Assembly: GCA_041690595.1 (NCBI GenBank)
Contig: JAWLHB010000033.1
Location: forward strand, 62,001 to 89,833
From: Lentisphaeria bacterium
GTDB lineage: Bacteria > Verrucomicrobiota > Lentisphaeria > JABSQK01 > JAWLHB01
Direction of reading: 5' to 3'
DNA length: 27,833 nt
The position numbers were made by a program, and so were the translations under genes. This document shows, piece after piece, positions 2,382-27,832 of this stretch. The stretch's first letter is position 1. The number at the start of each line of letters is the position of its first letter. The notes below the pieces were generated by a model. It had not been told where the DNA came from and ran no database searches. It saw nothing but the letters and a program-made list of their open reading frames with translations.

Positions 2382-4109
2382 TCAATCCGTCAGCTCATAG
2401 TTCGCCGGAATAAGGTTGTCGTAAACGAAGAGGATGGCATCTATCAACCCCTTCTTGGGGGCTGGATATGGCCCATTCAACTCGAGCGTAGCAAGGTGTA
2501 TCCTGGCATTTATGCTGAGCTGATTGTATCCGTTGCCGCTGGCCATACGCAGGTTCTCCCATGAGTCACCAGTCATCGAGAGCGGAAATGACCACTCTCC
2601 GCCTGTTCCAAAGCTGTGACGAAACCCAGGACCATAGGCGATCCAGAAATCGTTGGCACGCGCTCCGTTGACATAGAGGATGCAGTCGATTCCCCCGAGA
2701 AAATGGTACCCGCCACCAAGCGGCAACTGGTAATTGATGCTCTGCATGCCGCTCCAATCGACAATGTCGAAATAACCCTGTCCGTTTTCCATCCACATTG
2801 GCATTCCAACGACCATGCCAGTGGCATGGTCCACCAGCGCATAGCCACCATGACTCATCGGGTAGGTCGCTTCGTCGTCAACCGCCACACCCCGCATGCT
2901 CAGCGTGTAAAGTATCCACGGCGCCGAGGCGGCTGGCGCTGCGCTCTTCTTCTCTGTTGTCACATCCGCCACCACTTCCGCCAGACGAGAGCCAGCGGCG
3001 GATTGCTGCCAAGGTATGCCCAGGTCGGTTGCCACATTGCCCACCAGCTCACCATGCGGCGTGTTTTCGGCATTGGCCTTCCGCGTCTCCGCAAGATCGA
3101 TGCGACCGCTGATGCTCCCCATTCCATAGCAAGCCGTCCCTCCGCTCTCCCCGCCAAAGCGCGATTGACCGACCAGCGTCGCGCAGACCACGCCAGAGGC
3201 CGCTCCACCCAGCGGAACGGTCGATGGATGATGCGCACCGTAATATTGGGTGATGTGAAAGTATTCATCTTGGCTGCCCAGTAGTGATTCCTGACTGTCG
3301 TTCACCATGAAAAGATAGCCTCCGGCGCCAGGCGTGCACTCATAGCTCATTCCATAGTTATCCCAACGCTCGACATACGCACTGCCATTCGAGAACTTGC
3401 ACATATCCGTTACCGCCCCAGTCACCTGATCGATGATCATCGCTCCCTGCCCCGTCAACGCTTGACTGCCGCTGCTGTGAATGTTGCCGCGAAAGGTGTA
3501 GTCATAGATCACATTCCGCTGCTGCGTCGGCGCCGCCAGAATCCGGAACAGCGGAACCGTGGAGACGAACAGGTTGTTCTCCGACTCCTCCACGATCTCA
3601 CTTCCAGCATCCACCCGGCACGCCAGCCAGACGTCGAACGGCGTATTCAGGCCCGTGCCGATGCGGATCCGGATTGCAGTCCATGTTTCATCACCCGGAC
3701 CGAGCGCTGGAATGGATAGTGTCGCCAGTTGCGAATCGTCGGTGACATCGAAGTCCCCGTCGGTCGACAACCAGACCACCGCGATGCTCGACGGTGCCGC
3801 TTCCGTCCCGATGTTCGCTATCTTCAGAAAGAGCAAAATGAAGCCGTCTTCATAGACTTCACTCTTGTCGGAACTCATAGAGTCGTTCACCAAGTCTGGG
3901 CCGCTGCTCGGCGTGATGGTGAGCACGGCTCCACTTGTCGCTGTCTTCACCTCCACTTGCCGCTCCGCTGGCACTGGCGAAACCGGACCCGCGGCAAGAG
4001 ACTTCAGCCGCGCCACAATCGCCGACTCCCGCGATCCTCCCCTCACTGGCAAGGCCGCTATGGAAACCACTGCCAACAGCACCGCAATCTGTCCGTACCT
4101 CTTTATCAC
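2382..4109 (-). CDS. Secreted protein with a CARDB/Ig-like domain and a duplicated C-terminal domain of unknown function (paralogue 1)
   Basis: GTG start with an AGGGGG SD-like site. Sec-type signal (MIKRYGQIAVLLAVVSIAALPVRG). CARDB-like pattern PDLV...IANIGT.AA...WLSTD...IPALGPG.E...VDAGSEIVEESENN, followed by the shared ~370-aa C-terminal module. Confidence 0.85.
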   Translation of the reverse strand: MIKRYGQIAVLLAVVSIAALPVRGGSRESAIVARLKSLAAGPVSPVPAERQVEVKTATSGAVLTITPSSGPDLVNDSMSSDKSEVYEDGFILLFLKIANIGTEAAPSSIAVVWLSTDGDFDVTDDSQLATLSIPALGPGDETWTAIRIRIGTGLNTPFDVWLACRVDAGSEIVEESENNLFVSTVPLFRILAAPTQQRNVIYDYTFRGNIHSSGSQALTGQGAMIIDQVTGAVTDMCKFSNGSAYVERWDNYGMSYECTPGAGGYLFMVNDSQESLLGSQDEYFHITQYYGAHHPSTVPLGGAASGVVCATLVGQSRFGGESGGTACYGMGSISGRIDLAETRKANAENTPHGELVGNVATDLGIPWQQSAAGSRLAEVVADVTTEKKSAAPAASAPWILYTLSMRGVAVDDEATYPMSHGGYALVDHATGMVVGMPMWMENGQGYFDIVDWSGMQSINYQLPLGGGYHFLGGIDCILYVNGARANDFWIAYGPGFRHSFGTGGEWSFPLSMTGDSWENLRMASGNGYNQLSINARIHLATLELNGPYPAPKKGLIDAILFVYDNLIPANYELTD

Positions 4110-4350: not shown

Positions 4351-6078
4351 TTATTCCGCCAATTCGAAATTGGCGGGAATCAGGTTCTCGACAATGAAGT
4401 AGAGGGCACCCATCGCATCCATCCTCTCGGCGGGATACGGCCCGTTCAACTCGAGCGTACCAAGGTGCACCTTGGCGTTCATGCTCAGCTGTTTGTACTC
4501 GTGGCCGGCGGACATGTCCATGTTGCGCCAGGTCTCACCAGTCAACGAGATTGGCAGTGACCACTGCTGGCCCGTGCCAAAATTATGCCGGAAATCAGGA
4601 CCATAACCGATCCAGAAGTAGGCCGCTCGCGCTCCGCTGACATAGAAGATGCGGTCGATTCCACCGAAGAAGTGGTACCCGCCGCCAAGCGGCAATTGGT
4701 AGTTGATGGGCTGCATGCCGCTCCAGTTGACAAGATCGAAGTAACCTTGACCATTCTCGACCCACATCGGTATCGCAACGATCAGGCCGGTGGAGTGGTC
4801 TATCAGCATGTAGCCGCCATAGCTCTTCGGGTCGATCAACTCGTCGCCTGCCGCCACACCACTCATGCTCAGCGTGTAGAGCATCCATGGCGGTGTGCTT
4901 GCCGTCCCGGGGCTCTCCTGCTTTGGCGGCACATCCTCGAGCACTTCCGCCAGATCCGAATCATCGCCCGTGACCTGCAAAGGAACGCCCAGACGGTTGG
5001 CCACATCCCTTGCCAACTCACTGTGCGGCTTGTTTTCGGCGTTGGCCTGTCGAGTCTCAGCAAGGTTGATGCGACCGCTGATGCTCCCCATGCCATAGCA
5101 GGCCGTGCCTCCGCTCTCCCCGCCGAAGCGCGATTGACCGACCAGCGTCGCGCAAACTGTCCCGGAGGCCGCTCCACCCAGTGGGACAGTCGACGGATGG
5201 TGCGCGCCATAGAATTGGGTGATATGGAAGTACTCATCCTCGCTGCCCAGCAGCGACGTCTGATCGTCGTTCACCAGGAAGAGATAGCCGCCCGAGTGGG
5301 GCGTGCATTCGTAGCTCATCCCGTAGAGATCCCAGCGCTCGATATAGGCGCTGCCATTCGAGTACTTGCACATATCCGTCACCGCCCCAGTCACCTGGTC
5401 GATGACCATCGCCCCCTGGCCCGTCAACACACGACTACCGTTGCTGTAGATGTTACCGCGGAAGGTGTAGTCATAGACCACATTCTGCTGCTGCGCCGGC
5501 GGCTCGACAATCCGGAACAACGGCTCCGTGGTGACGAACAGGTTGTTCTCCGAATCCTCCACGATCTCATCTCCCGCATCCACCAGGCACGCCAGCCAGA
5601 CATCGATCGGCGTGTTCAGCCCCTTGGCGATATGCGTTCGGGTCGCAATCCAGGTTTCATCGCCCGGATCGAGTGCCGGTACCGGTAAGGTTGTCAGTTG
5701 CTCATCGTCAGTGACATCAAAGTCGCCATCCGTCGACAGCCAGAGCACCGCCGTGCTTGCCGGTGCCGCTTCCGTCCCGATGTTCTCGATCTTCAGAAAG
5801 AGCGCGATGAAGCAATCTTCATAGACTTCTCTCGTGTTAGCTGCCGCTGCGCTGTTCACCAGGTCCGGACCGCTGCTCGGCGTGATGGTCAGCACGGCTC
5901 CACTTGTTCCCGTCTTCACCTCCACCTGCCTCTCCGCTGCCATCACGGACGATGTCGGCCCAGCGGTAAGCGATTCCAGACGATCGGCTATCGCCGAGTC
6001 CCGCGATGCTCCCCTCACCGGCAAGGCCACTATGGAAACCACTGCCAACAGCACCGCAAATAGGTTGTACCTCTTCAT
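4351..6078 (-). CDS. Secreted protein with a CARDB/Ig-like domain and a duplicated C-terminal domain of unknown function (paralogue 2)
   Basis: ATG start with a GAGG SD. Signal peptide MKRYNLFAVLLAVVSIVALPVRGA. Co-linear with, and highly similar to, 2382..4109 over the full 575 aa. Confidence 0.85.
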   Translation of the reverse strand: MKRYNLFAVLLAVVSIVALPVRGASRDSAIADRLESLTAGPTSSVMAAERQVEVKTGTSGAVLTITPSSGPDLVNSAAAANTREVYEDCFIALFLKIENIGTEAAPASTAVLWLSTDGDFDVTDDEQLTTLPVPALDPGDETWIATRTHIAKGLNTPIDVWLACLVDAGDEIVEDSENNLFVTTEPLFRIVEPPAQQQNVVYDYTFRGNIYSNGSRVLTGQGAMVIDQVTGAVTDMCKYSNGSAYIERWDLYGMSYECTPHSGGYLFLVNDDQTSLLGSEDEYFHITQFYGAHHPSTVPLGGAASGTVCATLVGQSRFGGESGGTACYGMGSISGRINLAETRQANAENKPHSELARDVANRLGVPLQVTGDDSDLAEVLEDVPPKQESPGTASTPPWMLYTLSMSGVAAGDELIDPKSYGGYMLIDHSTGLIVAIPMWVENGQGYFDLVNWSGMQPINYQLPLGGGYHFFGGIDRIFYVSGARAAYFWIGYGPDFRHNFGTGQQWSLPISLTGETWRNMDMSAGHEYKQLSMNAKVHLGTLELNGPYPAERMDAMGALYFIVENLIPANFELAE

Positions 6079-6683: not shown

Positions 6684-8717
6684 ATGTCGAAATTCACCTC
6701 AGCCAAGGTACGAAATTTCACCCTCGCCGGTCATTCCGGCTCTGGTAAGACGCTGTTGGCAGACACGATGCTCTTCAATGCCGGCAAGGTTACCAGAGTC
6801 GGTAAGGTTGAAGACAAGACCAGCGTGTCAGACTATCGGCAGGAAGAGCAGGACAAGGGACAGAGCTTGTTCGCCACACCGCTGCATTGCTCCTGGAAGG
6901 ACAACGAGCTCTTCTTCGTTGATACTCCCGGCAATCTCGATTTTCAGGGAGAGGCCTGCGCCGCCCTCAGCGTCTGCGACACCGCGCTCATCGTCATTGA
7001 CGCCCACAGCGGCATCGAGTTCGGCACCGTCCGGACCATGAAGATGGCTCGCGAACGCGGCTGCCCACGCGCTATCTTCGTCAATGGACTCGATCGGGAA
7101 AATGCTGACTATTTCAAGATCCTCAAGGAGATTCAGGACAACTACGGCGCGACCACCTGCATCCCCATCACCCTCCCCGTCGGCGAATCCGCCAATTTCA
7201 GCAGCGTGGTCCATGTCCTCCGCGGTGAAGATGTGCCTGCCGAGCTTGCCGAACTGGTCAGCACCTATAAGACGACGCTGATGGACACCGTCGCCGAATC
7301 CGACGAAGAGCTGATGATGCGCTATCTCGAAGGCGAAGAGCTGAGCGAGAAGGATATCTCGAAGGGATTGCACGCCGCCGTGCAGGCGGGATCCCTGATC
7401 CCCGTTTTCTGCGGCAGCGCCGCCCGGAACATCGGCATCGAACAGCTCATGAACGGCATCGTCAATCTCTTCCCCGATCCTTTGGCCCTCGGTCCTGTCG
7501 CACTCGCTGACGGCAGCACCATCCAACCCAAAGAAGATGGCGATGGCCTCGGCTTCGTCTTCAAATCCGTTATCGATCCCTTCATCGGCCAGCTCACCTT
7601 CATGCGCGTCTATACCGGCAGCATCACCTGCGAAGGCGACATCCTCAATGTCAGCCGCAACACGCGCGAACGCTTCGGTAGCATGCTGCTCACCAACGGC
7701 AAGGAACAGGAAGCACTCGACTGCGCCGTCCCCGGCATGATCGTTGCCGTCCCCAAGCTCAAGGCCACCCATATCAACGACACCCTCTCCACCAACACCG
7801 CCTCTCACGGCAAGCTCAAACCCATCGTCTTCCCGAAACCTACTGCTTCCTTCGCCTGCTATCCGGTCAAGAAGGGTGACGATGACAAGATCGCCACCGC
7901 CCTGCATCGCCTCGCTGACGAAGACCCCACCGTCAAGGTCGAAAGGCAGGAAGAAACCGCGGAACTCCTCCTCTACGGCATGGGCGATCAGCACCTCAGG
8001 CTCATCATCGACCGCGTTCACGCCAGTGCCCACGTCGAAGTCGATCTGCGCAAGCCCAAGGTTCCTTATCGCGAGACGATCACCAAGGAAGGGGACGCCA
8101 AATACCGCCATAAGAAGCAGACCGGCGGGCATGGTCAGTTCGCGGAAGTCTGGCTGCGCATAGAGCCGATTACCGAGCAGGAGTACGAATTTGCCAATGA
8201 AGTCGTCGGCGGGCATATCCCCAAGAACTTCATTCCCGGCGTCGAGAAAGGCGTGGTCGATGCCATGAAGAACGGGCCACTCGCCAACTGCAAGGTCATC
8301 AACATCCGTGCGGCTGTCTACGACGGCAAGTATCACCCCGTCGATTCCTCCGACATGGCCTTCCAGATCGCCGGGCGATCCGCCTTCCGCGAGGCCATGC
8401 GCAGCGCCAACCCCATCCTCCTCGAACCCATCATGCACGTCCGCATCACCATTCCCCCAGACTACATGGGCGACATCAGCGGCGACCTCAACCAGCGGCG
8501 TGGACGCATCCTCGGCATGGCGCTGGAGGATGGCATGCAGACCGTCGAGGCCGAGGTGCCACTCGGGGAAATGCACAACTATTCGTCGCAGCTCCGCTCC
8601 CTGACCCACGGACGTGGCTCCTTCAGCATGGAGTTCATCCGCTACGATCAGGTTCCCACCAATGTCTCGAAGCAGATTCAGGAAGAGGCCGCCAAGGATT
8701 CGGCTGAAGAGGAATAG
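6684..8717 (+). CDS. fusA2: Elongation factor G-like protein (EF-G2/FusA2 type)
   Basis: GAGGAG SD. G1 GHSGSGKT, G3 DTPG, G4 NGLD. Domain IV KKQTGGHGQF and YHPVDSS. Domain V LLEPIM...GDISGDLNQRRG...LRSLTHGRGSF. Not in an rpsL-rpsG-tuf context and with a divergent switch I, as expected for the secondary paralogue. Confidence 0.93.
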   Translation: MSKFTSAKVRNFTLAGHSGSGKTLLADTMLFNAGKVTRVGKVEDKTSVSDYRQEEQDKGQSLFATPLHCSWKDNELFFVDTPGNLDFQGEACAALSVCDTALIVIDAHSGIEFGTVRTMKMARERGCPRAIFVNGLDRENADYFKILKEIQDNYGATTCIPITLPVGESANFSSVVHVLRGEDVPAELAELVSTYKTTLMDTVAESDEELMMRYLEGEELSEKDISKGLHAAVQAGSLIPVFCGSAARNIGIEQLMNGIVNLFPDPLALGPVALADGSTIQPKEDGDGLGFVFKSVIDPFIGQLTFMRVYTGSITCEGDILNVSRNTRERFGSMLLTNGKEQEALDCAVPGMIVAVPKLKATHINDTLSTNTASHGKLKPIVFPKPTASFACYPVKKGDDDKIATALHRLADEDPTVKVERQEETAELLLYGMGDQHLRLIIDRVHASAHVEVDLRKPKVPYRETITKEGDAKYRHKKQTGGHGQFAEVWLRIEPITEQEYEFANEVVGGHIPKNFIPGVEKGVVDAMKNGPLANCKVINIRAAVYDGKYHPVDSSDMAFQIAGRSAFREAMRSANPILLEPIMHVRITIPPDYMGDISGDLNQRRGRILGMALEDGMQTVEAEVPLGEMHNYSSQLRSLTHGRGSFSMEFIRYDQVPTNVSKQIQEEAAKDSAEEE

Positions 8718-15109: not shown

Positions 15110-15622
15110 TCAGGCACTCACCTGCAGATAGATCAGGTAGGCCGCGATTCCCAGCACCGCCAGAGCCAGCGCCGCGATCACCAGGACGAAGACCATGTTC
15201 ACCTTCGGATTACTGCGCTTCGAACTCGGAAACGGATCCTTGTTGCCAAGGTCAGGGTTCAACGTCATCGTCTCGTTGACGTTGATCTGCGTACGCGTAC
15301 TGATCACCGATGTCGGCGACTTGTCGTCGCAGTCAAACAACAGCTCCACCGCCCCAACTTGCAGAATATCGCTGTTGACCAGCTTCTGCTCCTCGATCCG
15401 CATGCCGTTGATACGAGTTCCATTGGTGCTGCCAGTGTCCCGCGCCGTGTACAACCCGTCCTCGTTCTTCACCAGCTCACAATGCCGGGTGCTGATTGTC
15501 GCATCCACGATGACGATGCTCTGGTCTTCCTGCCGCCCGATGGTGTAGACATCTTCGGTCAGCTCATACGTCTGCCCGCGCAGCTGCTCGGACAACACAA
15601 TAAGTTTAGGTGTTGGCGCCAT
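15110..15622 (-). CDS. FHA-domain protein with a C-terminal membrane anchor
   Basis: FHA motifs TIGR, ISTRH, DTGSTNGT.ING, D.LQVG, then a Thr/Ser-rich linker and a C-terminal hydrophobic helix. Confidence 0.92.
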   Translation of the reverse strand: MAPTPKLIVLSEQLRGQTYELTEDVYTIGRQEDQSIVIVDATISTRHCELVKNEDGLYTARDTGSTNGTRINGMRIEEQKLVNSDILQVGAVELLFDCDDKSPTSVISTRTQINVNETMTLNPDLGNKDPFPSSKRSNPKVNMVFVLVIAALALAVLGIAAYLIYLQVSA

Positions 15623-15880: not shown

Positions 15881-16513
15881 ATGACGTCCCATTTCTTCCT
15901 GCGACTCCTCTCCATCGTTTCCGCCGTCACCGCTATCTCCATTATGGCCACCGGGTGCCGATCTCCGAAGATTGACAAGGATGCCAAAGTCCGCGGTGCG
16001 GACCAAGGTAGTTACGTCGGTGAAAGCACCCTCTTCGATCCGGACGCAAGCTCGGGGCGTACCACCTCCCCTTCTACTCCCATTGCCTTCGAAGTGCCTC
16101 CCCCCACCGAATGGAGTGAGCCAGGAGGCGGCATTCCCGTGGATCCGGATGGCTTCGAAAAGGTACCCGGGCAGGTATGGCCCCCCGTCTATTTCGGCTA
16201 CAACCGTTTTTCCATCGGCGAAACCGAACGCCAGAAGATCACCAGACTGGCTGACTTCCTCTCCGAGAATGCGCGCTATCACTGCCTCGTCGAAGGACAC
16301 TGCGACGAACGCGGCAGCGATGAATACAACCGCGCCCTCGGCGAGCGCCGCGCCCTTACCGTCAAAGAATACCTCGTCCAGCTTGGAGTCGATGCCAACC
16401 GCCTCCGCACCCTATCCTACGGGGAGGAACGGCCGGCCGACAGCGGCAGCGGCGAATCCGCGTGGGCCAAGAACCGACGCGCCGAATTCGTCATCCTGTT
16501 ACCCAGGAACTGA
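15881..16513 (+). CDS. pal: Peptidoglycan-associated lipoprotein (Pal/OmpA-like)
   Basis: Lipoprotein signal ending MATG-C. OmpA C-terminal domain VYFGYN...EGHCDERGSDEYNRALGERRA...SYGEERP...NRRAEF. Confidence 0.9.
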   Translation: MTSHFFLRLLSIVSAVTAISIMATGCRSPKIDKDAKVRGADQGSYVGESTLFDPDASSGRTTSPSTPIAFEVPPPTEWSEPGGGIPVDPDGFEKVPGQVWPPVYFGYNRFSIGETERQKITRLADFLSENARYHCLVEGHCDERGSDEYNRALGERRALTVKEYLVQLGVDANRLRTLSYGEERPADSGSGESAWAKNRRAEFVILLPRN

Positions 16514-16533
16514 ACGCCTGCCGTGGCCAGCGT

Positions 16534-17517
16534 ATGATCACTAAATGCCAACACTGCCGGCGACCGGTAGAGGTTGAGCTTTCTCCAATGGGCGGCCTCT
16601 TCAGATGCTCGCTCTGCAAGAAGCTGAATGTCCTTCTCAAGCAGGTCACTGACCACGCGATCCTCTTCAAGGATTACGAGATCATGCAGGAGGTTGGCCA
16701 GGGTGCCAATGCCGTGGTCTGCAAAGCCCGACACCCTTCCGGCTCCATCATCGCCATCAAGCTCTTCCTCTTCGACCGCGAGGTCGACAGCCATGCCACC
16801 CGCGAGTTCTTCCGCGAAAGCAACTTCATGGTCCAGGTCGAGCACAAGAACATCGTCCGTACCTACTCGGGCGGGGAGCACTATGGCATTCCTTATCTCG
16901 AGATGGAGTATGTCGATGGGCTCAACCTCGCCCAGTATCTCGATCGCTATGGCTGCATGGACCAGTATGAAGCCTTCTCCGTCGGATCCTTTGTCGCGCT
17001 CGCCCTCGATTACGTCTGGAGCAATCACCTGATGGTTCACCGTGACATCAAACCCCAGAACATCATGCTCGATACCCAGGGACGCGTGAAGGTCTGCGAT
17101 TTCGGCATGGTCACCGCGCATGAGATGGCGGGCGTCGACCTCGATGCCATCGAGGGAACCCCCTACTATCTCAGCCCCGAATCCATCAGCAATTCCGCCA
17201 GTACCTACCAGGACAATCGCAGCGATATCTATTCCCTCGGGACGACGCTGTATCACCTGATTGCCGGAGAGCCTCCCTTCGACTATGACTCCGTCGTCAA
17301 AGTCATCACTGCTCGCGCTGACGAGGACGCCCCGGACATTCGCGACGTGAAGCCCGAGGTACATGCCGATGTATCCGCCGTGCTGCGAACCATGATGGCC
17401 CGCGCTCCGGAAGACCGCTACGTCACCGCCTATGAATGCCTGCAGGACATGCTGCGCGTCAAGCGCCGCTCCAAACCGTTGCTCGTAGACCGCTCCCGCC
17501 CCAGAATCAATCAATAA
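16534..17517 (+). CDS. Hanks-type Ser/Thr protein kinase with an N-terminal zinc-ribbon-like motif
   Basis: GQGANAVV, AIK, HRDIKPQN, DFG, GTPYYLSPE and SDIYSLG are all intact. N-terminal CQHC...CSLC. No TM segment. Start set to ATG 16534, after the pal stop. Confidence 0.93.
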   Translation: MITKCQHCRRPVEVELSPMGGLFRCSLCKKLNVLLKQVTDHAILFKDYEIMQEVGQGANAVVCKARHPSGSIIAIKLFLFDREVDSHATREFFRESNFMVQVEHKNIVRTYSGGEHYGIPYLEMEYVDGLNLAQYLDRYGCMDQYEAFSVGSFVALALDYVWSNHLMVHRDIKPQNIMLDTQGRVKVCDFGMVTAHEMAGVDLDAIEGTPYYLSPESISNSASTYQDNRSDIYSLGTTLYHLIAGEPPFDYDSVVKVITARADEDAPDIRDVKPEVHADVSAVLRTMMARAPEDRYVTAYECLQDMLRVKRRSKPLLVDRSRPRINQ

Positions 17518-17553: not shown

Positions 17554-18189
17554 ATGTGCGAACGTCCCGCTCCTGGTGAATGCGACGATTTTCGCGCGCG
17601 CTTCATTCGCGCCTGGACCGACTGCGGCGGCAGAAACGCCGCGGAGAGCTATCGCCGGCTCCTTGAGTGCTATGCGTGCGGCAGAGTCTACCATCGGTTT
17701 GACCATATCGCCGCCATCTTCACGGTCGCCGATGAGATCCTCGGCAGCGATGCCCTTTCCCCCGAGCAGACCATCGCCATCTTCTATCACGACGCCGTCT
17801 GCTCCCCCGGCAATCACGACAATGAAGCGCAAAGCGCGGAGCTTCTGCGCCGCGAACTTGGCGCTGACGCCCCGCCAGAGATCGTCGACCATATTGCCAC
17901 CCTCATTCTCGCCACCGAGCATCATCGCGCTGACGACGCCGACGCGCAGCTCATTATCGACCTGGACCTCAGCTTCCTCGGGCTCGACAAGGAAGCCTTC
18001 CGGATGAACGTCGAAAAGCTTGTCAGCGAGTTCTCCCACCTCAGCCGTCACGACTTTCTCGAAGGACAGAAGCAGTACCTGCAACCCTTCCTCGACCGCC
18101 GACATATCTATTATACCACCGCCTTTCGCACCCGATTCGAAGACCAGGCCCGAGACAACCTCAAGCACTTCATCGAGCAGCAATCATGA
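17554..18189 (+). CDS. HD-superfamily metal-dependent phosphohydrolase (COG4339-like)
   Basis: GGAGG SD. YH..DHI, AIFYHDAV, NEAQSA, LILATEHH and DLDLSFLG motifs. Confidence 0.85.
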   Translation: MCERPAPGECDDFRARFIRAWTDCGGRNAAESYRRLLECYACGRVYHRFDHIAAIFTVADEILGSDALSPEQTIAIFYHDAVCSPGNHDNEAQSAELLRRELGADAPPEIVDHIATLILATEHHRADDADAQLIIDLDLSFLGLDKEAFRMNVEKLVSEFSHLSRHDFLEGQKQYLQPFLDRRHIYYTTAFRTRFEDQARDNLKHFIEQQS

Positions 18190-19322
18190 GAGCCCTTTAC
18201 GCCTTTTCCGGCGACCCGATCACCTTCGGCCACATCGACATCGTCGAACGTGCCGCCCGCACCTATGACGAAGTCGCCGTCGCCATTGGCGAGAACCCCT
18301 CCAAGTCCGGCAAGTACCTCTTTCCCCGCGAAGCGCGCCTCAACCTCGCCTCCGATTGCCTCTCGCACCTGCCGAACGTCACCTGCGTCACCTTCGGCGG
18401 TCTGCTCGGCGAGTACGCCTTCCGGCATGGTTTCGACGTTATCGTCCGCGGCGTTCGCAACAACTCCGATCTCGAAGGCGAGTTGGTCCTCTACAACGTC
18501 GTCGAAAGCCTCCATTCCAGCCTCGACATGGTCTTTTTTCCCGCTCGCCACGATCTGGCCCACATCAGCTCCGGCGTCGTCAAGGCCATCGTTGCGGAAG
18601 GCGGTGACGTCAGCGCCTACTGTCCATTGCGGGTAAAGGAAGAACTCGAACGGCGCATCCTCGGGCGATTCTCCGTCGCCGTCGCCGGCGGTGTCGCTGC
18701 CGGCAAAACCTTTGTCGCCAGACGCCTGGTCGACAAGCTTTCGGAATCCACCACCGCCACCTATATCAGCCTCGACAGTGTTGGCCACTTCATCCTCGGC
18801 CACTCCCAGGACTCCCTCTACGTCTCCACCCGCGAACGCGTTGCACAGCGCTTCGGTCCGGATGTCATGAACAGCGACGGCACCATAGACCGCAAGAAGC
18901 TCGGGCGCATCGTTTTCGCCGACCACCAGGCTCTCGACGACCTCAATGCCATCATGCGCGATCCCATGCTCGCCAGGCTGTACGAAGAAACCTGCAGCCT
19001 GCCGCACGGCATCCTCGTCCTCGAAGGCGCCATCTTTGTCGAAGCCGGATGGACCAATCTCGTCAACAACAACGTCATCCTCGTCAACGCCCCCATTCCC
19101 ATTCGTCAGCAGCGCCTCGTGCAGCGCGCCGGCATTGACGCCGACGAAGCTCTCAACAAGATCCACCGCCAGATTTCCCCAGACGAACGCAAGACTATCA
19201 TGAACGAGCGTATCGCCCGCCAGCGATGGGGACGACTTTGGGAAATCGAAGATTCCGGCGATGGCGTCAACGTCGACCGCCTCGCCGCTCAGCTCATCGA
19301 GCTGGCCAACGCCCCCAACTGA
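18186..19322 (+). CDS. coaD: Bifunctional phosphopantetheine adenylyltransferase / dephospho-CoA kinase (CoaD-CoaE fusion)
   Basis: aa 1-~160: SGDPITFGHIDI, IVRGVRN.SD, HISSGVVK (CoaD). aa ~160-378: GGVAAGKT P-loop, DGTIDRKKLGRIVFAD, L..LNAI, E.AIFVE, RQ (CoaE). One uninterrupted frame with an ATGA overlap to the HD gene. Confidence 0.9.
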   Translation: MRALYAFSGDPITFGHIDIVERAARTYDEVAVAIGENPSKSGKYLFPREARLNLASDCLSHLPNVTCVTFGGLLGEYAFRHGFDVIVRGVRNNSDLEGELVLYNVVESLHSSLDMVFFPARHDLAHISSGVVKAIVAEGGDVSAYCPLRVKEELERRILGRFSVAVAGGVAAGKTFVARRLVDKLSESTTATYISLDSVGHFILGHSQDSLYVSTRERVAQRFGPDVMNSDGTIDRKKLGRIVFADHQALDDLNAIMRDPMLARLYEETCSLPHGILVLEGAIFVEAGWTNLVNNNVILVNAPIPIRQQRLVQRAGIDADEALNKIHRQISPDERKTIMNERIARQRWGRLWEIEDSGDGVNVDRLAAQLIELANAPN

Positions 19323-19946: not shown

Positions 19947-22085
19947 ATGCCTACCTCCACCTCCATCTCCTTCCGTATTGGCGCCCGAGCGAGCCGCCTC
20001 TCTCTTGCGCAGAGCGGCAATGCCCTGCGCAAGCTCCGCCAACTCCTCCCGAACTTTCACTTCGAGCTGGTTCCCTACTCCAGCCCAGGCGATGAAGACC
20101 GCCTCACCGACCTGCGCATCAGCGACCCCGACTTCTTCACCCGATACCTCGATCACGACGTCCTCAGCGGCAAAATCGACGGCGCCCTTCATTCCGCCAA
20201 GGATATGCCCGATCCCCTCCCCGATGGCATCGACTGGTGCTGGCTCCCATGGCCGGAAGATCGCCGCGACGTCCTCGTCTACAGGCCCGGCCTGACCGCG
20301 GACGACCTGCCCGGCGCCCCCGTCATCGGCGTCAGCAGCGATCGCCGTGCCCAGTACTGCCGCGAGCGCTGGCCCAATGCTCTTCACCGCCCCATCCGCG
20401 GCAACATCGAACACCGCCTGCAGCAACTCGACAATGGCGACTTCGACATTGTGCCCATGGCCGGCTGCGCCCTCGTCCGTCTCGATCTTACCCACCGCAT
20501 CAGCGAATGGGTTCCTCTCGACGAGCTGGACGCCCCGCCCGCACAAGGCTACCTTGGCCTCACCTTCCGCCACGGTGACCCGCGCCTTACCCGCCTGCGT
20601 AATCTCCTCATCAAGGCGGTCACCCTCATCAGTGCCGGCCCTGGCGATCCAGGATTATGCACCATCGCCGGGCGCGACGCCTTGCACCAGGCAGACGTTT
20701 GCCTCTACGATGCCCTCGCCCCACGCGAGCTGCTCGCCGACTTGCCGCCCCATGCCGAAGCCATCGACGTCGGTAAGCGCCGGCACAAGTATACCGTTGG
20801 CCGCCAGGAACTGGAGAATCTCCTCGTCAACTACTGTCGTCAGGGCAAACGCGTGGTGCGTCTCAAGGGAGGCGATGCCGGCATCTTTGCCCGCCTCTCC
20901 CAGGAGACCGAAGCTCTGGCACACTTCAATCTCCCCTTCCGCGTGCTCCCGGGTGTCAGCAGCCTCCATGCCGCCACCACCCCCACCGGCCTCATGCTCA
21001 CCCGAAAAGGTACCTCCCGAGGCTTCTGTGTCGTCACGCCGGAGCAACTTGGCGATCAACAAGCCGCCGTCGGCATGAACGACCGACGGAATCTGCCCCT
21101 CGCCCTCTTCATGGCCGTCTCCCGCATTCGCGATGTCGTCGCCGAGCTTCTTGCCGAAGGGCGCCCCGCCGGCGAACCCGCCACCATGGTCTATGCCGCC
21201 AGCACCCCCGACGAAGTCATCCTGACCGCCACGCTCGCCACCATTGCCGACATCGTCGAGGCCCATGATACCAACTCACCGGGACTCCTCCTCGTCGGCG
21301 ACATTGCCGATGCCCACCACCTGTTCGACCGCAGCCACTTCCCGCTCGAAGGCAAGCATGTTCTACTCACCTGCGGCTCCAGCATCATGGCCCGCGCCAG
21401 GCTCGCGGTACACGACCTCGGCGGCATCCCGATACCCATGCCCTTCATCCGACTTGTGCCCGAGAAGAGCCTCATCCCCGTACTTCGCGATCTTCACGAC
21501 TTTGACTGGCTCGTCCTCACCTCCCCTTCCGCCGTCGATTGTCTCTGGCAGCTCCTGACTCAGGCCCGGGTCGATCCGCGTCAACTCCCCAGGATCATCG
21601 TCTGTGGATCAGGAACAGCCGACGCGCTCATGCGCTACGGCATTCATGCCGACGCCTGCCCCGCCAGCGACTATTCCGCCCAGGGGATGCTCGCGCTCGC
21701 GGCTGAATGCATACCCTCAGGCGCCCGTGTCCTCCGCCTGCGCTCCGACAAGGCCACCCCTGCCGTTGCCGATGCGCTCACCGCACGCGGCGCCCGCGTT
21801 GCCGATCATATCCTCTACCGCAACGAGGTCATCCGCCACGAGCACCTGCCGCCGCTCGACGCCATCTTTTTCGCCAGCGCCTCCGCCGTAGATGCCTTTG
21901 TCGACTGCTTCACCCCCGGGGCCGCCGAAGCACTGACGCTGGTGGCCATCGGCAAGCCAACTGCCGACCGTCTCCTTCATCATGGACTAACCGCCACGGT
22001 AGTATCCGAAGAAGGCACGGCCCCGGCCGCTATCCATGCGCTTGCCGCCTGGTATACCACGCGCGCCATCTCCCTCGGCATTTGA
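19947..22085 (+). CDS. Triple fusion: truncated hydroxymethylbilane synthase (HemC domains 1-2) + uroporphyrinogen-III C-methyltransferase (CobA/SUMT) + uroporphyrinogen-III synthase (HemD)
   Basis: HemC: GARASRLSLAQ, PGD, HSAKDMP, IGVSSDRR, IRGNI..RL, PPAQG. SUMT from aa ~223: SAGPGDPGL.T, LYDAL, VVRLKGGD, LPGVSS. HemD from aa ~466: PLEGKHVLLT, WLVLTSPSAV, G.GTA.AL, FFASASAV, AIGKPTA. Confidence 0.9.
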   Translation: MPTSTSISFRIGARASRLSLAQSGNALRKLRQLLPNFHFELVPYSSPGDEDRLTDLRISDPDFFTRYLDHDVLSGKIDGALHSAKDMPDPLPDGIDWCWLPWPEDRRDVLVYRPGLTADDLPGAPVIGVSSDRRAQYCRERWPNALHRPIRGNIEHRLQQLDNGDFDIVPMAGCALVRLDLTHRISEWVPLDELDAPPAQGYLGLTFRHGDPRLTRLRNLLIKAVTLISAGPGDPGLCTIAGRDALHQADVCLYDALAPRELLADLPPHAEAIDVGKRRHKYTVGRQELENLLVNYCRQGKRVVRLKGGDAGIFARLSQETEALAHFNLPFRVLPGVSSLHAATTPTGLMLTRKGTSRGFCVVTPEQLGDQQAAVGMNDRRNLPLALFMAVSRIRDVVAELLAEGRPAGEPATMVYAASTPDEVILTATLATIADIVEAHDTNSPGLLLVGDIADAHHLFDRSHFPLEGKHVLLTCGSSIMARARLAVHDLGGIPIPMPFIRLVPEKSLIPVLRDLHDFDWLVLTSPSAVDCLWQLLTQARVDPRQLPRIIVCGSGTADALMRYGIHADACPASDYSAQGMLALAAECIPSGARVLRLRSDKATPAVADALTARGARVADHILYRNEVIRHEHLPPLDAIFFASASAVDAFVDCFTPGAAEALTLVAIGKPTADRLLHHGLTATVVSEEGTAPAAIHALAAWYTTRAISLGI

Positions 22086-22098
22086 AGGGGCATTGCGG

Positions 22099-25000
22099 CT
22101 ACCGGCGCTGGTATCCGGTCATCTTGCTCTCCAGGAAGGTCATCGCGGCATCCATCGTCATCGACTGCTGATTCATGGCGAGGGTATAGCCATTGACGCC
22201 GCACGTGATGGTGCTTTGCGAATACAGGCCCGTCCCACCATCCACACTGTGACTCCAGAGATTGCCGCTCAGGCTCAGTGCAATCGTCTGTGGCACCTTC
22301 GACGGCAGCCCGATCAACATCGACCGCGTCGCACCGTACATGAACCGAAAGCTGTGGCTGTCGCCTTCCCCCTCGGCGCGATCAATCATCTCCTGCCGAG
22401 CTCCCAGGAAAGCATACGAGCTGTTGCCGACTGCCAGCGGATAAGAAAAGCTCTGCTCGCCGTACCAGCTCTCCACCGTGTACATCCACGTGCTCCCCTC
22501 GCGCCACGCCCGCAGAATCCGCATCTCGCCTGTCGCCAGATCGAGCAGCAGATAGCCGACATAGGCAAAGTTTCGCAAGCCATTGTTGCCCCCCGTCACT
22601 CCATTCCAGTTCAGATTGTAGCAAACGACGCCCTGACCTGCCACCCTTGGTCCAGCTGCCTCCGAGATCGCCTCCATTGAACCCACCAGGATCACATTGG
22701 CGCTCGCGGCAAGCTCCGCCAGCAACTGCTCGAAGGGCGTGTTCTCGGTATTCTCCAGTACCGTACGCGCATAATCCAGACGCGCACTCGCCTCGCCCAT
22801 CTGCACCGTGGTCGGATTGCCGGCAGGATCGCCAGCCCGCCAAGGCCCTTGGAAGCTTAGCACCGGCCGCCCCACCACGCCGCCGCCCAGTGGTGCATCG
22901 CTCGTGTATGCCGTGCCGATCATGTGCAGATAGCTGAACTCCTCGACGGATGCCGGGGTCAGGCCGATCCTCGTCAGGTTCAGCACCCACAGATTGCTGC
23001 CGGCAAGGCCCGCCATGTACCACATGCCGCCATCACGCGAAAAGTCGATCCGTTCCCCGCGTCCGTCCTGCCAGCGGACCACGGCCGCGGCATTTCCATC
23101 TCGCTGATCCAGCACCATGTAACCCGCGCCAGTAACGCCCGTGGTGACGCCGCCATAGCTGTCGCCCCGCACCGAGAAGCTGTACACCAGATTCTCCGCC
23201 TGATCGTCATTGAGGACCGTCACCACCGCCTGCGCGGATTGATGATCCACCGCCGTCGCCGAAATGGTCACCTGCTTGTGCGCGTCGATGATATCCTCAT
23301 CCACGCCGCTCACCATGAAAGTTGCCGTGCTGCTGCCCACCGCCATCGACACGCTGCTCGGCACAGTGGCTTCGCCAGTGTCACTGCTGCTCAATTCCAC
23401 GACCAATGCCACCCCCGTATCGGTATTGCGGGTGACTGTGGCGATCGTACTGCCGCCATTCTCACCGATCGTTGCCGCGGCCAGCGTCAACCGCAGCCAT
23501 GGTTCATCATTGTCGATGATGGTCCCAGTTCCTTCCCCGTCGCCCACGCTGAGCAGAAGTGGCATCGACAGATTCACTGAAAAGCTTTCATCCGGCTCAT
23601 CCAGTTCATCCTCAAGCGTCTGGACGCTCAAAGTTACCGTCATCTGGTATGGTGCAAAGCTGACGCTGCCGCCGCCCGCCACATAATCCAACCCCGCCAG
23701 TGCACTGCCATCCACCGTAATCCAGCCAATGCTCGAAGCAAACGGACTCGGCCGGTCAAGGCTCAGCGTAAAGACGATGCTCCCCCCCTCCACAACGGCG
23801 CCGTCCCCCACATTCACCACCGGCACATCGTCGTCGACAATCGTCACCGTGGCACTGCCATCCGAGAGTTCGGCATTCTGCGCTCCGCTCAGTGTCACCA
23901 GGAAGAACTGTTCCCCTTCCACCTCCTCATCGTCCACGATGGTCACACTCACCTGGCGAGAGGTGACGCCAGCGGCAAAGCTCACCAGGGTGTTCATGGC
24001 AAGATAATCACTGGGCGCCGTTGCCGACCCGTCAGCGGTTGTTACCGTCACCGTCACCTCCCGATCGCACGGCGTCGACAGCGTCACATCGACCACTGCC
24101 TGGCCACCCGTCTCCATCACCTGGTCATCGCCAATGCTCAGCATGGCGTTGTCATCATCCAGAATCGTCACCACGCCGCGGAGATCGCCGGGGAGCGCGT
24201 TCTGGACATTACTCAGCACCAGCGCAAAGTTCTCGTCCAGCTCGTCAACCACGTCACCATGAATGGTCAGAAGCACCTCTTTGGCCATCTCGCCCGGCGC
24301 GAATGTCAGCGAACCCGAAGCTGCTTCATAGTCAATCCCTTCTGTCGCCGTATCGGCCTCGGTCCTGTAGTCGACGGTCACCGTGAAGCTGCTTTCGATA
24401 TCCAGCGCCACGGCCAGTGCCACGGCACTCACGCCGGCATCGCCTTCCGTGACCACCGCGCCAGTGACGGCGACGCTCGCTGTATCGTCATCAAGAATGG
24501 TACCCGTTGCCGCCGTTGCAGGCAAATTGACATGTACCGGGTTGGTCAGCGTCACCGTGAAGCTCTTGTCCAGCTCGTCCACTCGGTCCCCGAGAATCGG
24601 CACCGTCATCGTCTGAACGATTTGCCCGGGAGCAAATACCAACTTTCCGCTTCGTTCCTCGTAGTCCATGCCCGCGACCGCGGTTCCGTCGGCAGTCGCA
24701 TAGTCGATAGTAATCGTCAGTGGACTGGGCTGATCCAGAATCACGCTGAAGAGCATCTCCGCCACCCCTATATCCCCTTCCGCCTGCTGCACATCGGTAA
24801 TGGAAGCGTCTGGAGAGTCATCATCCAGGATGGTGATGACTGCATCGGCATCGTCGGGAAGAGTCGTCCCGGAGATGTGCGTCACCACCAGTATCAGGTC
24901 CTCGGAACCTTCCGGCAGTTCGTCGTCGAGAATCGTCACCGGGAAGCTCTTCTCCGTCTCCCCTGGCGTGAAGGTCAATCCAATTGGCGCGAATTCAAAG

Positions 25001-27231
25001 TCCACATCCACGGTGGCACTGCCCCCCTGATGAGCAATGCGGAACCACAACTCCCGTGCGCTCGGCGTACTCAGCACTGCCCGAACCATTGCAATACCAG
25101 CCGCTTCACCGACCTGCATGTCGGCCATGAAAAAGACCGAGGTATCATCGTCCTCGATGGTGCCTGTTGCCTGATCATCCTGCATCCCTGCCTGCTCGGC
25201 ATTCATCAGCGAGATCGTGAAGCTCTCGTCATCCTCATCCACGGCATCTCCGATTATCCCAACTGATATCGTTCTGGACAGTTGGCCGGGCGGAAAGGTA
25301 AGGGTACCGCCGGCGGACTCATAGTCGACGCCGGCTGTGGCGGTCTCCGGCGCCGTCTCCCATGCGCAGGTCACCGTAAAGCTGCTCGGGTAGTCCAACG
25401 TGACGGTAAAGGTCATTTGGGTTACCCCTGCATCCCCCTCCGCGATGGCCGCGTCGCCAATCGAGAGCAGCGAGTTATCGTCGTCCATGATAACCAGCGT
25501 TCCTGCCGCCTGGGATATCGTCGCCTGGTTCGCCCCACTCAGTTCAACAGTCAGCGACTTATCGGCCTCATCCAGCTTGTTTCCATGAATCGTCACCAGA
25601 ATATCCCTTGACCGCTCACCGGGAAGAAAAGTCAACGTGCCGGGAGTCAGCGAGAAATCCACGCCGGCTTTGGCGCTCCCTTCCGTCGACGCATAATCGA
25701 CGGTCACCGTACGATCGCTTGCCTTGCTCAACGAGACCGCCATTGCCACCTGCCGGCTGCCCGAGTCCCCCTCTTCGACTGCCAGATCCCCAATGCTCAA
25801 CGCCGCGACATCGTCATCGAGTACTGTAATCGTCGCGATGGCAGGGCCCAGCAATGCGTTTCGTGCGTCGCTCAAGACCACAGTGAAACTCTCATCCAGT
25901 TCATCCACCTCATCGCCCATTGCCTGCACGGCAATGCTCTTTTCGGTCTCACCAGGCGCAAAGCTCAGCTGCCCGCCTGCCGACACGAAATCCACATCCG
26001 CGGCAGCTGTGCCGGCTTGCGTTGACCAATCCACGATCACCGTAAAGCTGCTCTCCAGGTTCAACGTCACGCTAAGTTTCACCGCCGTGAGCCCGTCATC
26101 ACCCTCGGTTACCTGGCCACCGCTGGCAATACTCACCATCGCCGTATCGTCGTCCAGTATGGTTGCGATGCCTATGCCGTCGGTGATCTCAGCGCCCTGC
26201 GCCCCGGCAAGCTGGAGTAAAAAGCCCTCATTCGCCTCATCCACCAGATCGCCGATCACGTTTGCTGGAACCGTCTTGGCCTGTTCTCCAGGTGAGAAGA
26301 CCAGGCTCCCTTCCGTCGCGATGAAATCGACCCCGACCGTCGCCGTCTCCGCCACAGTCGCATAGTCTACGGTGATCGTGAAGACGCTGGGAATATCCAT
26401 GGTAACGGCGAAGACGGCAGCCGTTATCCCCGTATCGCCTTCATCCGCCTGCACATCCGCCACAGAGAGTCGTGGCGTGTCGTCATCCAGAATGGTTCCC
26501 ACAGCTTCGGCGACTACGAGGGTCGCACCCACGGGATCGGTTAGAATGACTCTGAAGCTTTCGTGTCCCTCATCGAGGCGATCTCCGATGATCGGCATCG
26601 CGATGGTCGCCTCGGTTTCGGCAATCGCGAAGCTCACGACATCGTTCACGGCGATGAAATCCTCGCCAGCGATTGCCGTCCCGCTCACGCTCGCATACGC
26701 GATCGTCACCACCTCTTCCGCAGGACTGCTCAGCGTAACAGTGAAGATCATGCTGCTGGTGCCGCTGTCACCCTCCACGAGTTCCGCGTCGCCGATGCTT
26801 GCCGTCGGCGGCACTCTTGCCGACAAGCTTACCGGGGCACTGATGCCACCGATCGCCCCATTGGAAACGAAAGTCAAACCTTCGCGAATGTCATGAATTA
26901 ATGACGTTGCTGCGTCGTAGACCTTGTAGGTGAGCCCACTTTCGCTATCCGCGTTGCTGAAGACCTGCAGGACGAATATTTTGCCCGCGGGGCTCAATGT
27001 CGGTTCCGCAACTCCCCGCAGATCATCTCCCTTGAACGCCGCCAGCATGCTGCCGTCGGCATCGACGGTGGTTGTTCCTACCGTCACCACCGCATAGACC
27101 TCCATCGAGTTCGCATAGCCAAGCGGAACGGTCCAATCCGGAACCGGATCAGCCGCAAGCGCTCCACGACCAGCCATCAGCAACAGCACCATGGTGGCCG
27201 CAAAACAAGGCAAAGCATGACGATGCTTCAT
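22099..27231 (-). CDS. Large secreted Calx-beta repeat protein (adhesin/surface-protein-like) with the shared C-terminal duplicated domain
   Basis: Signal peptide ending ALA-A, an N-terminal ~110-aa beta domain, 11 repeats of ~110 aa (EGD.G...V.YAT..GTA.AG.DF...G.L.F.PGE..K...GD..DE.DE.F...TILDDD), then the ~370-aa C-terminal module. Confidence 0.92.
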   Translation of the reverse strand: MKHRHALPCFAATMVLLLMAGRGALAADPVPDWTVPLGYANSMEVYAVVTVGTTTVDADGSMLAAFKGDDLRGVAEPTLSPAGKIFVLQVFSNADSESGLTYKVYDAATSLIHDIREGLTFVSNGAIGGISAPVSLSARVPPTASIGDAELVEGDSGTSSMIFTVTLSSPAEEVVTIAYASVSGTAIAGEDFIAVNDVVSFAIAETEATIAMPIIGDRLDEGHESFRVILTDPVGATLVVAEAVGTILDDDTPRLSVADVQADEGDTGITAAVFAVTMDIPSVFTITVDYATVAETATVGVDFIATEGSLVFSPGEQAKTVPANVIGDLVDEANEGFLLQLAGAQGAEITDGIGIATILDDDTAMVSIASGGQVTEGDDGLTAVKLSVTLNLESSFTVIVDWSTQAGTAAADVDFVSAGGQLSFAPGETEKSIAVQAMGDEVDELDESFTVVLSDARNALLGPAIATITVLDDDVAALSIGDLAVEEGDSGSRQVAMAVSLSKASDRTVTVDYASTEGSAKAGVDFSLTPGTLTFLPGERSRDILVTIHGNKLDEADKSLTVELSGANQATISQAAGTLVIMDDDNSLLSIGDAAIAEGDAGVTQMTFTVTLDYPSSFTVTCAWETAPETATAGVDYESAGGTLTFPPGQLSRTISVGIIGDAVDEDDESFTISLMNAEQAGMQDDQATGTIEDDDTSVFFMADMQVGEAAGIAMVRAVLSTPSARELWFRIAHQGGSATVDVDFEFAPIGLTFTPGETEKSFPVTILDDELPEGSEDLILVVTHISGTTLPDDADAVITILDDDSPDASITDVQQAEGDIGVAEMLFSVILDQPSPLTITIDYATADGTAVAGMDYEERSGKLVFAPGQIVQTMTVPILGDRVDELDKSFTVTLTNPVHVNLPATAATGTILDDDTASVAVTGAVVTEGDAGVSAVALAVALDIESSFTVTVDYRTEADTATEGIDYEAASGSLTFAPGEMAKEVLLTIHGDVVDELDENFALVLSNVQNALPGDLRGVVTILDDDNAMLSIGDDQVMETGGQAVVDVTLSTPCDREVTVTVTTADGSATAPSDYLAMNTLVSFAAGVTSRQVSVTIVDDEEVEGEQFFLVTLSGAQNAELSDGSATVTIVDDDVPVVNVGDGAVVEGGSIVFTLSLDRPSPFASSIGWITVDGSALAGLDYVAGGGSVSFAPYQMTVTLSVQTLEDELDEPDESFSVNLSMPLLLSVGDGEGTGTIIDNDEPWLRLTLAAATIGENGGSTIATVTRNTDTGVALVVELSSSDTGEATVPSSVSMAVGSSTATFMVSGVDEDIIDAHKQVTISATAVDHQSAQAVVTVLNDDQAENLVYSFSVRGDSYGGVTTGVTGAGYMVLDQRDGNAAAVVRWQDGRGERIDFSRDGGMWYMAGLAGSNLWVLNLTRIGLTPASVEEFSYLHMIGTAYTSDAPLGGGVVGRPVLSFQGPWRAGDPAGNPTTVQMGEASARLDYARTVLENTENTPFEQLLAELAASANVILVGSMEAISEAAGPRVAGQGVVCYNLNWNGVTGGNNGLRNFAYVGYLLLDLATGEMRILRAWREGSTWMYTVESWYGEQSFSYPLAVGNSSYAFLGARQEMIDRAEGEGDSHSFRFMYGATRSMLIGLPSKVPQTIALSLSGNLWSHSVDGGTGLYSQSTITCGVNGYTLAMNQQSMTMDAAMTFLESKMTGYQRR
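23205..26810 (-). repeat. Eleven degenerate Calx-beta coding repeats
   Basis: Eleven T[IV]xD[DN]D-type repeat ends counted in the translation (TILDDD x5, TVLDDD, VIMDDD, TIEDDD, TIVDDD, TIIDND, TVLNDD). Boundaries are approximate. Confidence 0.85.
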
Positions 27232-27358: not shown

Positions 27359-27832
27359 CTAGTCTCTGATGAAGTTAGTCAGCGTGCCTTCGACGTAGAT
27401 CATGGCTTGGTCGAGGGCGAGCTGATTCTGGTTTATGTGCAGAGTCATGCCTCCGTTGATGCCGCAGGCGATGGTGCTCTGCGTGTAGGTACCACCCTCC
27501 TCGTTCGGGCTGAAGTGGCCCCAGAGGTTGCCGCTCAGGCTCAGCGGCAGGGTCTGCGGCTCGTTCGAAGGCAGCCCGATCTTCACCGTACGGTTGGCCC
27601 CGTACATGAAACGGAAGCGGTAGTCTTCCGGGTGAGCAAAGCCTGCCCGGAGGATACCGTCGCGGCCACCGAGGAAGGTATAGGTGCTGCTGCCGACCGT
27701 CAACGGATAGGCAAAGCTTTCGGCTGTACTCCAAGTCTCGATGGTGTAGTACCACTGGGTTCCCTGACGCCAGGCGCGCAGGGCCTGCATCTCACCCGTA
27801 GACAGGTCGAGAAGCAGGTAACCGGGATAGCT
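27359..27832 (-). CDS. C-terminal fragment of another protein carrying the shared C-terminal domain (5' truncated by window edge)
   Basis: The frame is open to the window edge: SYPGYLLLDLSTGEMQALRAW...FRFMYGA...LSLSGNLW...QSTIACGING. It aligns closely with the C-terminus of 22099..27231. Confidence 0.88.
   Translation of the reverse strand, partial: SYPGYLLLDLSTGEMQALRAWRQGTQWYYTIETWSTAESFAYPLTVGSSTYTFLGGRDGILRAGFAHPEDYRFRFMYGANRTVKIGLPSNEPQTLPLSLSGNLWGHFSPNEEGGTYTQSTIACGINGGMTLHINQNQLALDQAMIYVEGTLTNFIRD

Follow-up and report, generated by a model that had tools for sequence, protein, structure and literature searches.

Four proteins encoded in the window (the whole 27,833-nucleotide stretch of DNA analyzed here) end in a common tail of ∼365 aa, which represents a real, apparently undescribed domain family. 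The tail, hereafter the module, consists of a tandemly duplicated unit of ∼180 aa that is predicted to form a β-barrel. We suggest, as a reading with about an even chance of being correct, that the twin module is the non-covalent, cell-side anchor of tip-stalk-base surface proteins exported by type II secretion (T2SS). How giant Sec-dependent adhesins and enzymes of the cell surface are exported and retained in PVC bacteria is poorly known, and T2SS substrates generally have no recognizable shared signal.

Proteins of the Window and Their Common Tail

The module-bearing genes of the window and their parts are as follows.

22099..27231, minus strand: 1710-aa secreted Calx-beta protein (sequence, domain search)
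23506..26808, minus strand: stalk of ten Calx-beta repeats, residues 142–1242 of the 1710-aa protein
22702..23199, minus strand: module unit A, residues 1345–1510 of the 1710-aa protein (predicted β-barrel and two helices)
22102..22629, minus strand: module unit B, residues 1535–1710 of the 1710-aa protein (predicted β-barrel and two helices)
2382..4109, minus strand: first 575-aa protein, with signal peptide, CARDB domain (residues 71–179), and twin-unit module
2385..3521, minus strand: twin-unit module of the first CARDB protein
4351..6078, minus strand: second 575-aa protein, a paralogue with signal peptide, CARDB domain, and twin-unit module
4354..5490, minus strand: twin-unit module of the second CARDB protein
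27359..27832, minus strand: fourth module gene, 3′ end only, with most of unit B (BLASTP, contig end)

From N- to C-terminus, the 1710-aa protein has a signal peptide, an unnamed domain of ∼110 aa, the Calx-beta stalk, a divergent Ig-like domain, and the twin-unit module. The module begins at residue 1345 (window 23199–22102, minus strand) and its unit B runs up to the stop codon. The initial annotation had counted 11 Calx-beta repeats; there are ten full repeats plus the divergent Ig-like domain. In both CARDB proteins the module starts at residue 197, and the two modules are 71% identical. The C-terminal 366 aa of the 1710-aa protein can be aligned to the final 379 aa of each CARDB protein (25–26% identity over ∼355 aa in BLASTP, E 1e-24 to 1e-31), with local alignment scores of 273 and 276 that are far above the maxima of 57 and 71 from 200 shuffles each. 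The homology proposed in the initial annotation is thereby confirmed, and the motifs that it quoted align as claimed. It had also assigned the second half of the module to the truncated gene at 27359–27832; the identity is 53%, and the gene is not broken but runs off contig C33, whose end coincides with that of the window.

The ∼110-aa N-terminal domain of the Calx-beta protein (window 26812–27150, minus strand) has counterparts, at 47–62% identity, in four further large proteins that the same genome (G000) encodes for secretion. Elsewhere in the window, a fused CoaD-CoaE-like protein (18186–19322, plus strand) joins a cytidylyltransferase-like domain to a dephospho-CoA kinase, an arrangement better known from the bifunctional CoA synthase of eukaryotes, and a single 712-aa ORF (19947–22085, plus strand) is a triple fusion of HemC, tetrapyrrole methylase, and HemD. 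A 651-aa ORF (408–2363, plus strand) is propeller-like by eye and has no Pfam match at E 1e-5. An EF-G-like GTPase (6684–8717), an FHA protein (15110–15622), an OmpA/Pal-like protein (15881–16513), and a Ser/Thr kinase (about 16500–17517) are ordinary. The EF-G-like protein has named relatives mostly from Lentisphaeria/Lentisphaerae and some from Kiritimatiella, which places G000 loosely in Lentisphaeria, Verrucomicrobiota.

Module Anatomy, Predicted Fold, and Family Searches

The two halves of the module align to each other with an HHalign probability of 99.65% (E 4.9e-25). The initial annotation had described one novel domain; its novelty stands, and the single domain resolves into two homologous units. 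Searches of Pfam, NCBIfam, PDB sequences, and Rfam gave no assignment for module or unit. Any given family matched at most one member of set A1 (28 members) or A2 (59 members), with a best E value of 7e-4 for such a single match; PadR hits to A2 cover the signal-peptide end alone. The ESM Atlas yielded no usable hit for the module and only unnamed clusters with a score of 0.76 for the stand-alone unit. Pattern scans of the genome contigs made no find, and no description of the domain was found in the open literature searched.

AlphaFold2 models are confident for the tandem (pLDDT 90.8, pTM 0.86) and for the single unit (pLDDT 93.7). Each unit is predicted to have ∼10 strands (DSSP) followed by two helices. 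Foldseek returned no fold-level match (query-normalized TM-scores of at most 0.27 for the tandem and 0.34 for the unit). The best structure matches of the tandem are to fHbp, NHBA, and Cap15 (Z 6.5), and those of the single unit are to OpcA (Z 9.0, rmsd 3.4, 129 aligned), CpeS (Z 8.9, rmsd 2.9, 113 aligned), OmpT (Z 8.6), and Rv2717c (Z 8.1). These matches, obtained with VIA-align, place the modeled unit among up-and-down barrels with none singled out, a similarity that is generic (Z of at most 9). They are ties among unrelated barrels, from which neither kinship nor a new fold follows.

No transmembrane helix was found by hydropathy in 28 modules, in which the highest 19-aa hydropathy ranges from 0.75 to 1.63. 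Column hydropathy reveals no continuous hydrophobic belt and no consistently hydrophobic strand face; some of the strands are short, or both of their faces are polar. Hydrophobic residues group instead at the V-Y and GYLV-D ends and on one helix face. Modules carry a net charge of −6 to −30, their chains end in helices and mostly on a charged residue, and conserved residues of the unit look structural. Judged by column hydropathy and strong acidity, the unit is likely a soluble β-barrel.

Census of the Module in Genome G000

An iterated HMM search over 67,346 six-frame ORFs of G000 (8.1 Mb, 97% complete) identified 30 tandem-module proteins, 28 complete and 2 cut at contig ends, in hosts of 540 to 18,235 aa. 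All 28 complete tandem copies stop 0–12 aa before the stop codon, the extreme C-terminal position that the initial annotation had proposed to check in HMM hits. A signal-like N-terminus is present in 26 of the 30 by a crude hydrophobicity test, the sole measure used for signal peptides, and assembly breaks have removed the N-terminus of the other four. Single units occur in six stand-alone signal-peptide genes (two adjacent pairs, one alone, and one directly upstream of the gene for the 18,235-aa giant), on a trypsin-like protein, and near the end of an S8 protein downstream of the giant, bringing unit-bearing genes to 38. At contig ends, the 3′-open ORFs of C1 and C50 end in the same repeat and the 5′-open ORFs of C33 and C51 begin at one and the same point of the module; these four ORFs probably represent two module genes that a collapsed repeat has split in halves.

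Passengers are diverse, as had been anticipated from the cargo of the window proteins. They include Calx-beta, Big_9/cadherin, PKD, and InlB-like repeats, β-helices, S8 and M6 peptidases, ice-binding, FG-GAP, kelch, FGE-sulfatase, and DUF4838 domains, and a BACON/ASH chain in the giant. For S8, M6, ice-binding, FG-GAP, FGE-sulfatase, and kelch passengers, the order is effector, Ig stalk, module.

The strongest result comes from the reverse test, in which stalk families prove almost confined to module genes. In G000, 62 of 64 Calx-beta matches over the cut-off are in 16 module ORFs, and the remaining two are in an ORF split from a module ORF by an N gap. The same holds for Big_9 (16 of 17 in module ORFs, the last in this same split-off ORF) and Flg_new_2 (25 of 26, the last in an ORF that runs off a contig end). 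All three S8 peptidases bear one or two units. Among the ORFs listed with at least 1000 aa and the most stalk-like composition, 15 of 17 bear the module; the exceptions are a 3′-open ORF and a pilin-headed protein. The module marks almost all Ig-stalk proteins of one genome and could serve to predict its surface proteome. Many other large signal-peptide proteins of G000, among those listed, are without it, and several large families of 1000–1700-aa signal-peptide proteins have common C-termini that are unrelated to the module.

The giant (G000:C17:23773–78477, minus strand; loci L082–L085, L122, and L056) belongs to a run on contig C17 that consists of a pilin-like cassette, a stand-alone unit, the giant, and an S8 peptidase with one unit, followed by glycosyltransferase and WbaP-like genes. 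On the same contig, a 1468-aa protein (G000:C17:84453–88874, minus strand; L122:8454–12857) has a prepilin-like N-terminus and a weak Calx-beta match, and seems to be a stalk-like protein with a pilin head in place of the module. A pattern scan found a prepilin-type motif in 90 called genes of G000.

Distribution across Verrucomicrobiota

When 1.84 billion representatives were searched with a profile, 125 hits were obtained, 101 of them outside G000. The foreign hits comprise 59 stand-alone single units, 21 C-terminal tandems, 11 C-terminal singles, 3 N-terminal units, 1 internal unit, 3 tandems whose N-terminal part is short or missing, and 3 fragments; N-terminal units also occur in loci of family f25. 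The C-terminal sorting domain suggested by the initial annotation therefore describes all 30 tandem proteins of G000, but elsewhere the unit mostly stands alone and is sometimes N-terminal. Its expectation of secreted hosts fared better, with 53 of the 59 stand-alone units signal-like.

Organism names, rare among the hits, are Verrucomicrobiota, Verrucomicrobiae, and Prosthecobacter. Matches to A2 occur in 66 of 117 genomes of family f63, 45 of 151 in the order of f63 (14 of 40 in f88, 3 of 3 in f90, none of 40 in f43, and none of 25 in f89), and 5 of 18 in f25. In the class of the window, 10 of 331 genomes match, a count that includes G000 and two discounted hits to the signal peptide only; matches in genus g12 were dropped for the same reason. 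Of 14 same-order genomes, 13 gave no match to the unit, and the one hit is to a signal-peptide end alone. Queries with P0004 or A1 turned up no tandem form among 40 relatives or among 300 genomes of the class, for each of which ∼6 candidates were scored in the class search, and its thirty-fold expansion is seen in G000 alone among the genomes searched. Judged by sequence matches, the unit is phylum-wide yet patchy. The lineage specificity claimed earlier holds insofar as all named relatives are Verrucomicrobiota, but only the tandem expansion is peculiar to G000.

Gene Context and Type II Secretion

In family f63, a stand-alone unit gene repeatedly stands just ahead of gspE, and gspF-G-H-I-J often come next. 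The unit gene of f88 is found immediately behind gspD, ahead of gspE, or convergent with these genes. Of the 24 loci of stand-alone clade A, 17 have gspE or gspD close by, with gene order varying and two families represented, and 7 loci have no T2SS neighbors. In sister clade B, T2SS genes are nearby in 0 of 20 loci, 8 of which were read for 1.5 kb on each side. Tree supports for the two clades are moderate (0.85 and 0.78), and kin are not independent. C-terminal single-unit fusions of f63 have no T2SS neighbors.

On contig C28 of G000, an S8-BACON-module gene is directly upstream of gspF-G-H-I-J-K. When gspF, G, I, J, and K of genome G172 are compared with G000, their best hits fall in this cluster, and G172 has two unit genes tail-to-tail with its own gsp cluster. 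Genome G568 has the same two unit genes and no T2SS gene in the 20 kb read. Two large neighbors in G172 were considered as unit carriers; they end in LamG-like repeats by eye and have no unit match. Direct adjacency to a T2SS cluster in G000 involves 1 of 38 unit genes and has a probability of ∼8% by chance, as estimated from 6 gspF-like genes among 5304 called genes. Most other module genes sit in unrelated surroundings, and G000 has 6 secretin and 8 full-length GspE/PilB matches. The initial annotation had looked to co-occurring outer-membrane translocon genes; no recurrent translocon family emerged among the listed neighbors of G000 module genes. Since no unit match came from 13 of 14 same-order genomes or from the genomes searched in f43 and f89, the unit is not a universal part of T2SS.

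Proposed Function and Alternatives

The order of effector, stalk, and module, the coverage of stalk families, the presence of a signal peptide without another anchor, and the occasional N-terminal place of the unit are best fitted by a cell-side anchor. N-terminal occurrence is what a position-independent anchor would exhibit, and linkage to gsp genes points to T2SS as the outer-membrane route, in keeping with the secretin and GspE/PilB matches of G000 and the lack of an autotransporter match there. We propose that the passenger-stalk-module protein would be exported by Sec, that T2SS would carry it across the outer membrane, and that the twin barrel would serve as a base by which the protein stays attached non-covalently at the cell surface. 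Docking partners of the base may be an envelope component or the single-unit proteins that stand alone. In G000 the module appears to be the general means of displaying adhesins with Ig stalks and proteases at the surface. The export or anchoring role put forward in the initial annotation would be consistent with these observations, with gene context now adding a link to type II secretion. It is also possible, although we hold it only tentatively, that in Verrucomicrobiota the unit works as a folded, portable domain for T2SS routing and display, that the stand-alone proteins of gsp operons are its docking partner at the secretin or on the surface, and that a twin copy suffices for export and display. 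If so, it would be a discrete, transplantable T2SS cargo domain, much as the T9SS CTD is for its own system. Because its stand-alone relatives accompany gsp genes in Verrucomicrobiae of the Prosthecobacter type, T2SS cargo selection or anchoring becomes testable by fusion.

The main rival to the anchor is a pure export tag, which we consider rather unlikely. The unit would be a folded T2SS targeting tag for the secretin or pseudopilus tip that drags the passenger out and does no anchoring itself, and the units encoded alone in T2SS operons would use the same binding site as adaptors or plugs. Clade A stand-alone genes remain beside gspD or gspE despite rearrangements, which is as a tag would have it, and fHbp and NHBA barrels head the fold list of the tandem. 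Cargo of T11SS is directed by a C-terminal barrel (PMC12282271). A tag is also compatible with anchoring by another route. However, a fixed base makes more sense of long Ig stalks, the unit is found at either terminus, the fold matches are generic, and many signal-peptide proteins of the T2SS-rich G000 have no unit.

It is improbable that the unit is an ordinary calycin- or nitrobindin-like barrel that binds a substrate, a surface, or a small hydrophobic molecule outside the cell, with its fixed C-terminal place a legacy of paralogous expansion. Soluble calycin-like barrels (CpeS and Rv2717c) do tie at the top of the matches, and secreted stand-alone forms are the commonest and their conserved residues look structural. 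But ligand binding leaves unexplained the near-complete coverage of unrelated stalk families, the tail of 0–12 aa, and the T2SS linkage of clade A, and it leaves the 18,235-aa protein without a recognizable anchor. A reading of the units as barrels embedded in the outer membrane, or as cargo barrels of T11SS/Slam, that anchor or export the passenger directly is very improbable even with OpcA and OmpT tied at the top for the single unit, given the column hydropathy and its short or polar strands, the helical and mostly charged chain ends, the acidity of modules, and a G000 in which SlipAM was not found by a search whose control did not ring.

Comparison with Known Systems

In tests that ran conclusively, the module exhibits none of the defining features of GlyGly-CTERM, T11SS, T9SS CTD, or SLH. 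In GlyGly-CTERM/rhombosortase systems of Vibrio, a constant C-terminal element keeps varied T2SS passengers on the surface (PMC6219818). The module is likewise a constant C-terminal element on varied passengers. GlyGly-CTERM, however, is a short Gly/Ser motif with a transmembrane helix and basic tail that is cleaved and lipid-conjugated, whereas the module is a ∼365-aa folded twin barrel that lacks a transmembrane helix and has stand-alone and N-terminal forms. The combination of motif, transmembrane helix, and basic tail that defines GlyGly-CTERM and PEP-CTERM is absent from the module, and a pattern search of modules found no PEP-CTERM-like tail; a PEP-CTERM search of G000 was negative, with its control silent.

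Cargo proteins of T11SS/Slam (TbpB, fHbp, NHBA, and hemophilin) share with module proteins a signal peptide, a variable N-terminal effector, and a predicted soluble barrel at the C-terminus. Their barrels have eight strands, and a Slam gene accompanies them in Proteobacteria (PMC12282271). The module differs in having ∼10 predicted strands and two helices per unit, a tandem arrangement, no sequence similarity, and T2SS rather than Slam neighbors; its fold matches to these barrels (Z 5–6.5) are tied with those to unrelated barrels. No DUF560/Slam (SlipAM) match was found in G000, in the search with the silent control. Giant proteins of Omnitrophota, also PVC bacteria, are encoded downstream of T2SS or pilin-like genes, and in the available text of that preprint they have transmembrane anchors and SecA-like domains near the C-terminus, with the module unmentioned there (10.1101/2023.11.21.568195). 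The gene for the 18,235-aa protein is comparably placed behind its pilin-like cassette. The 12-stranded C-terminal membrane barrel of T5a autotransporters (PF03797) is not seen in the module, the model of which ends in helices, and has no match in G000, in a search whose control was positive in 3 of 14.

In T9SS, too, a single genome has many large, Sec-exported proteins with Ig stalks that end in a folded domain, the CTD. The CTD is an Ig-like sandwich of ∼70–80 aa from Bacteroidota, and the module differs from it in size, fold, and phylum; TIGR04183 matched neither the module itself nor anything in G000, for which the control was also silent. SLH domains are small helical repeats that bind wall polymers, and Pfam SLH matched no module. 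They are also terminal, repeated, and position-flexible anchors on surface enzymes and adhesins, and by analogy SLH and other non-covalent envelope-binding domains may be the best functional counterparts of the module.
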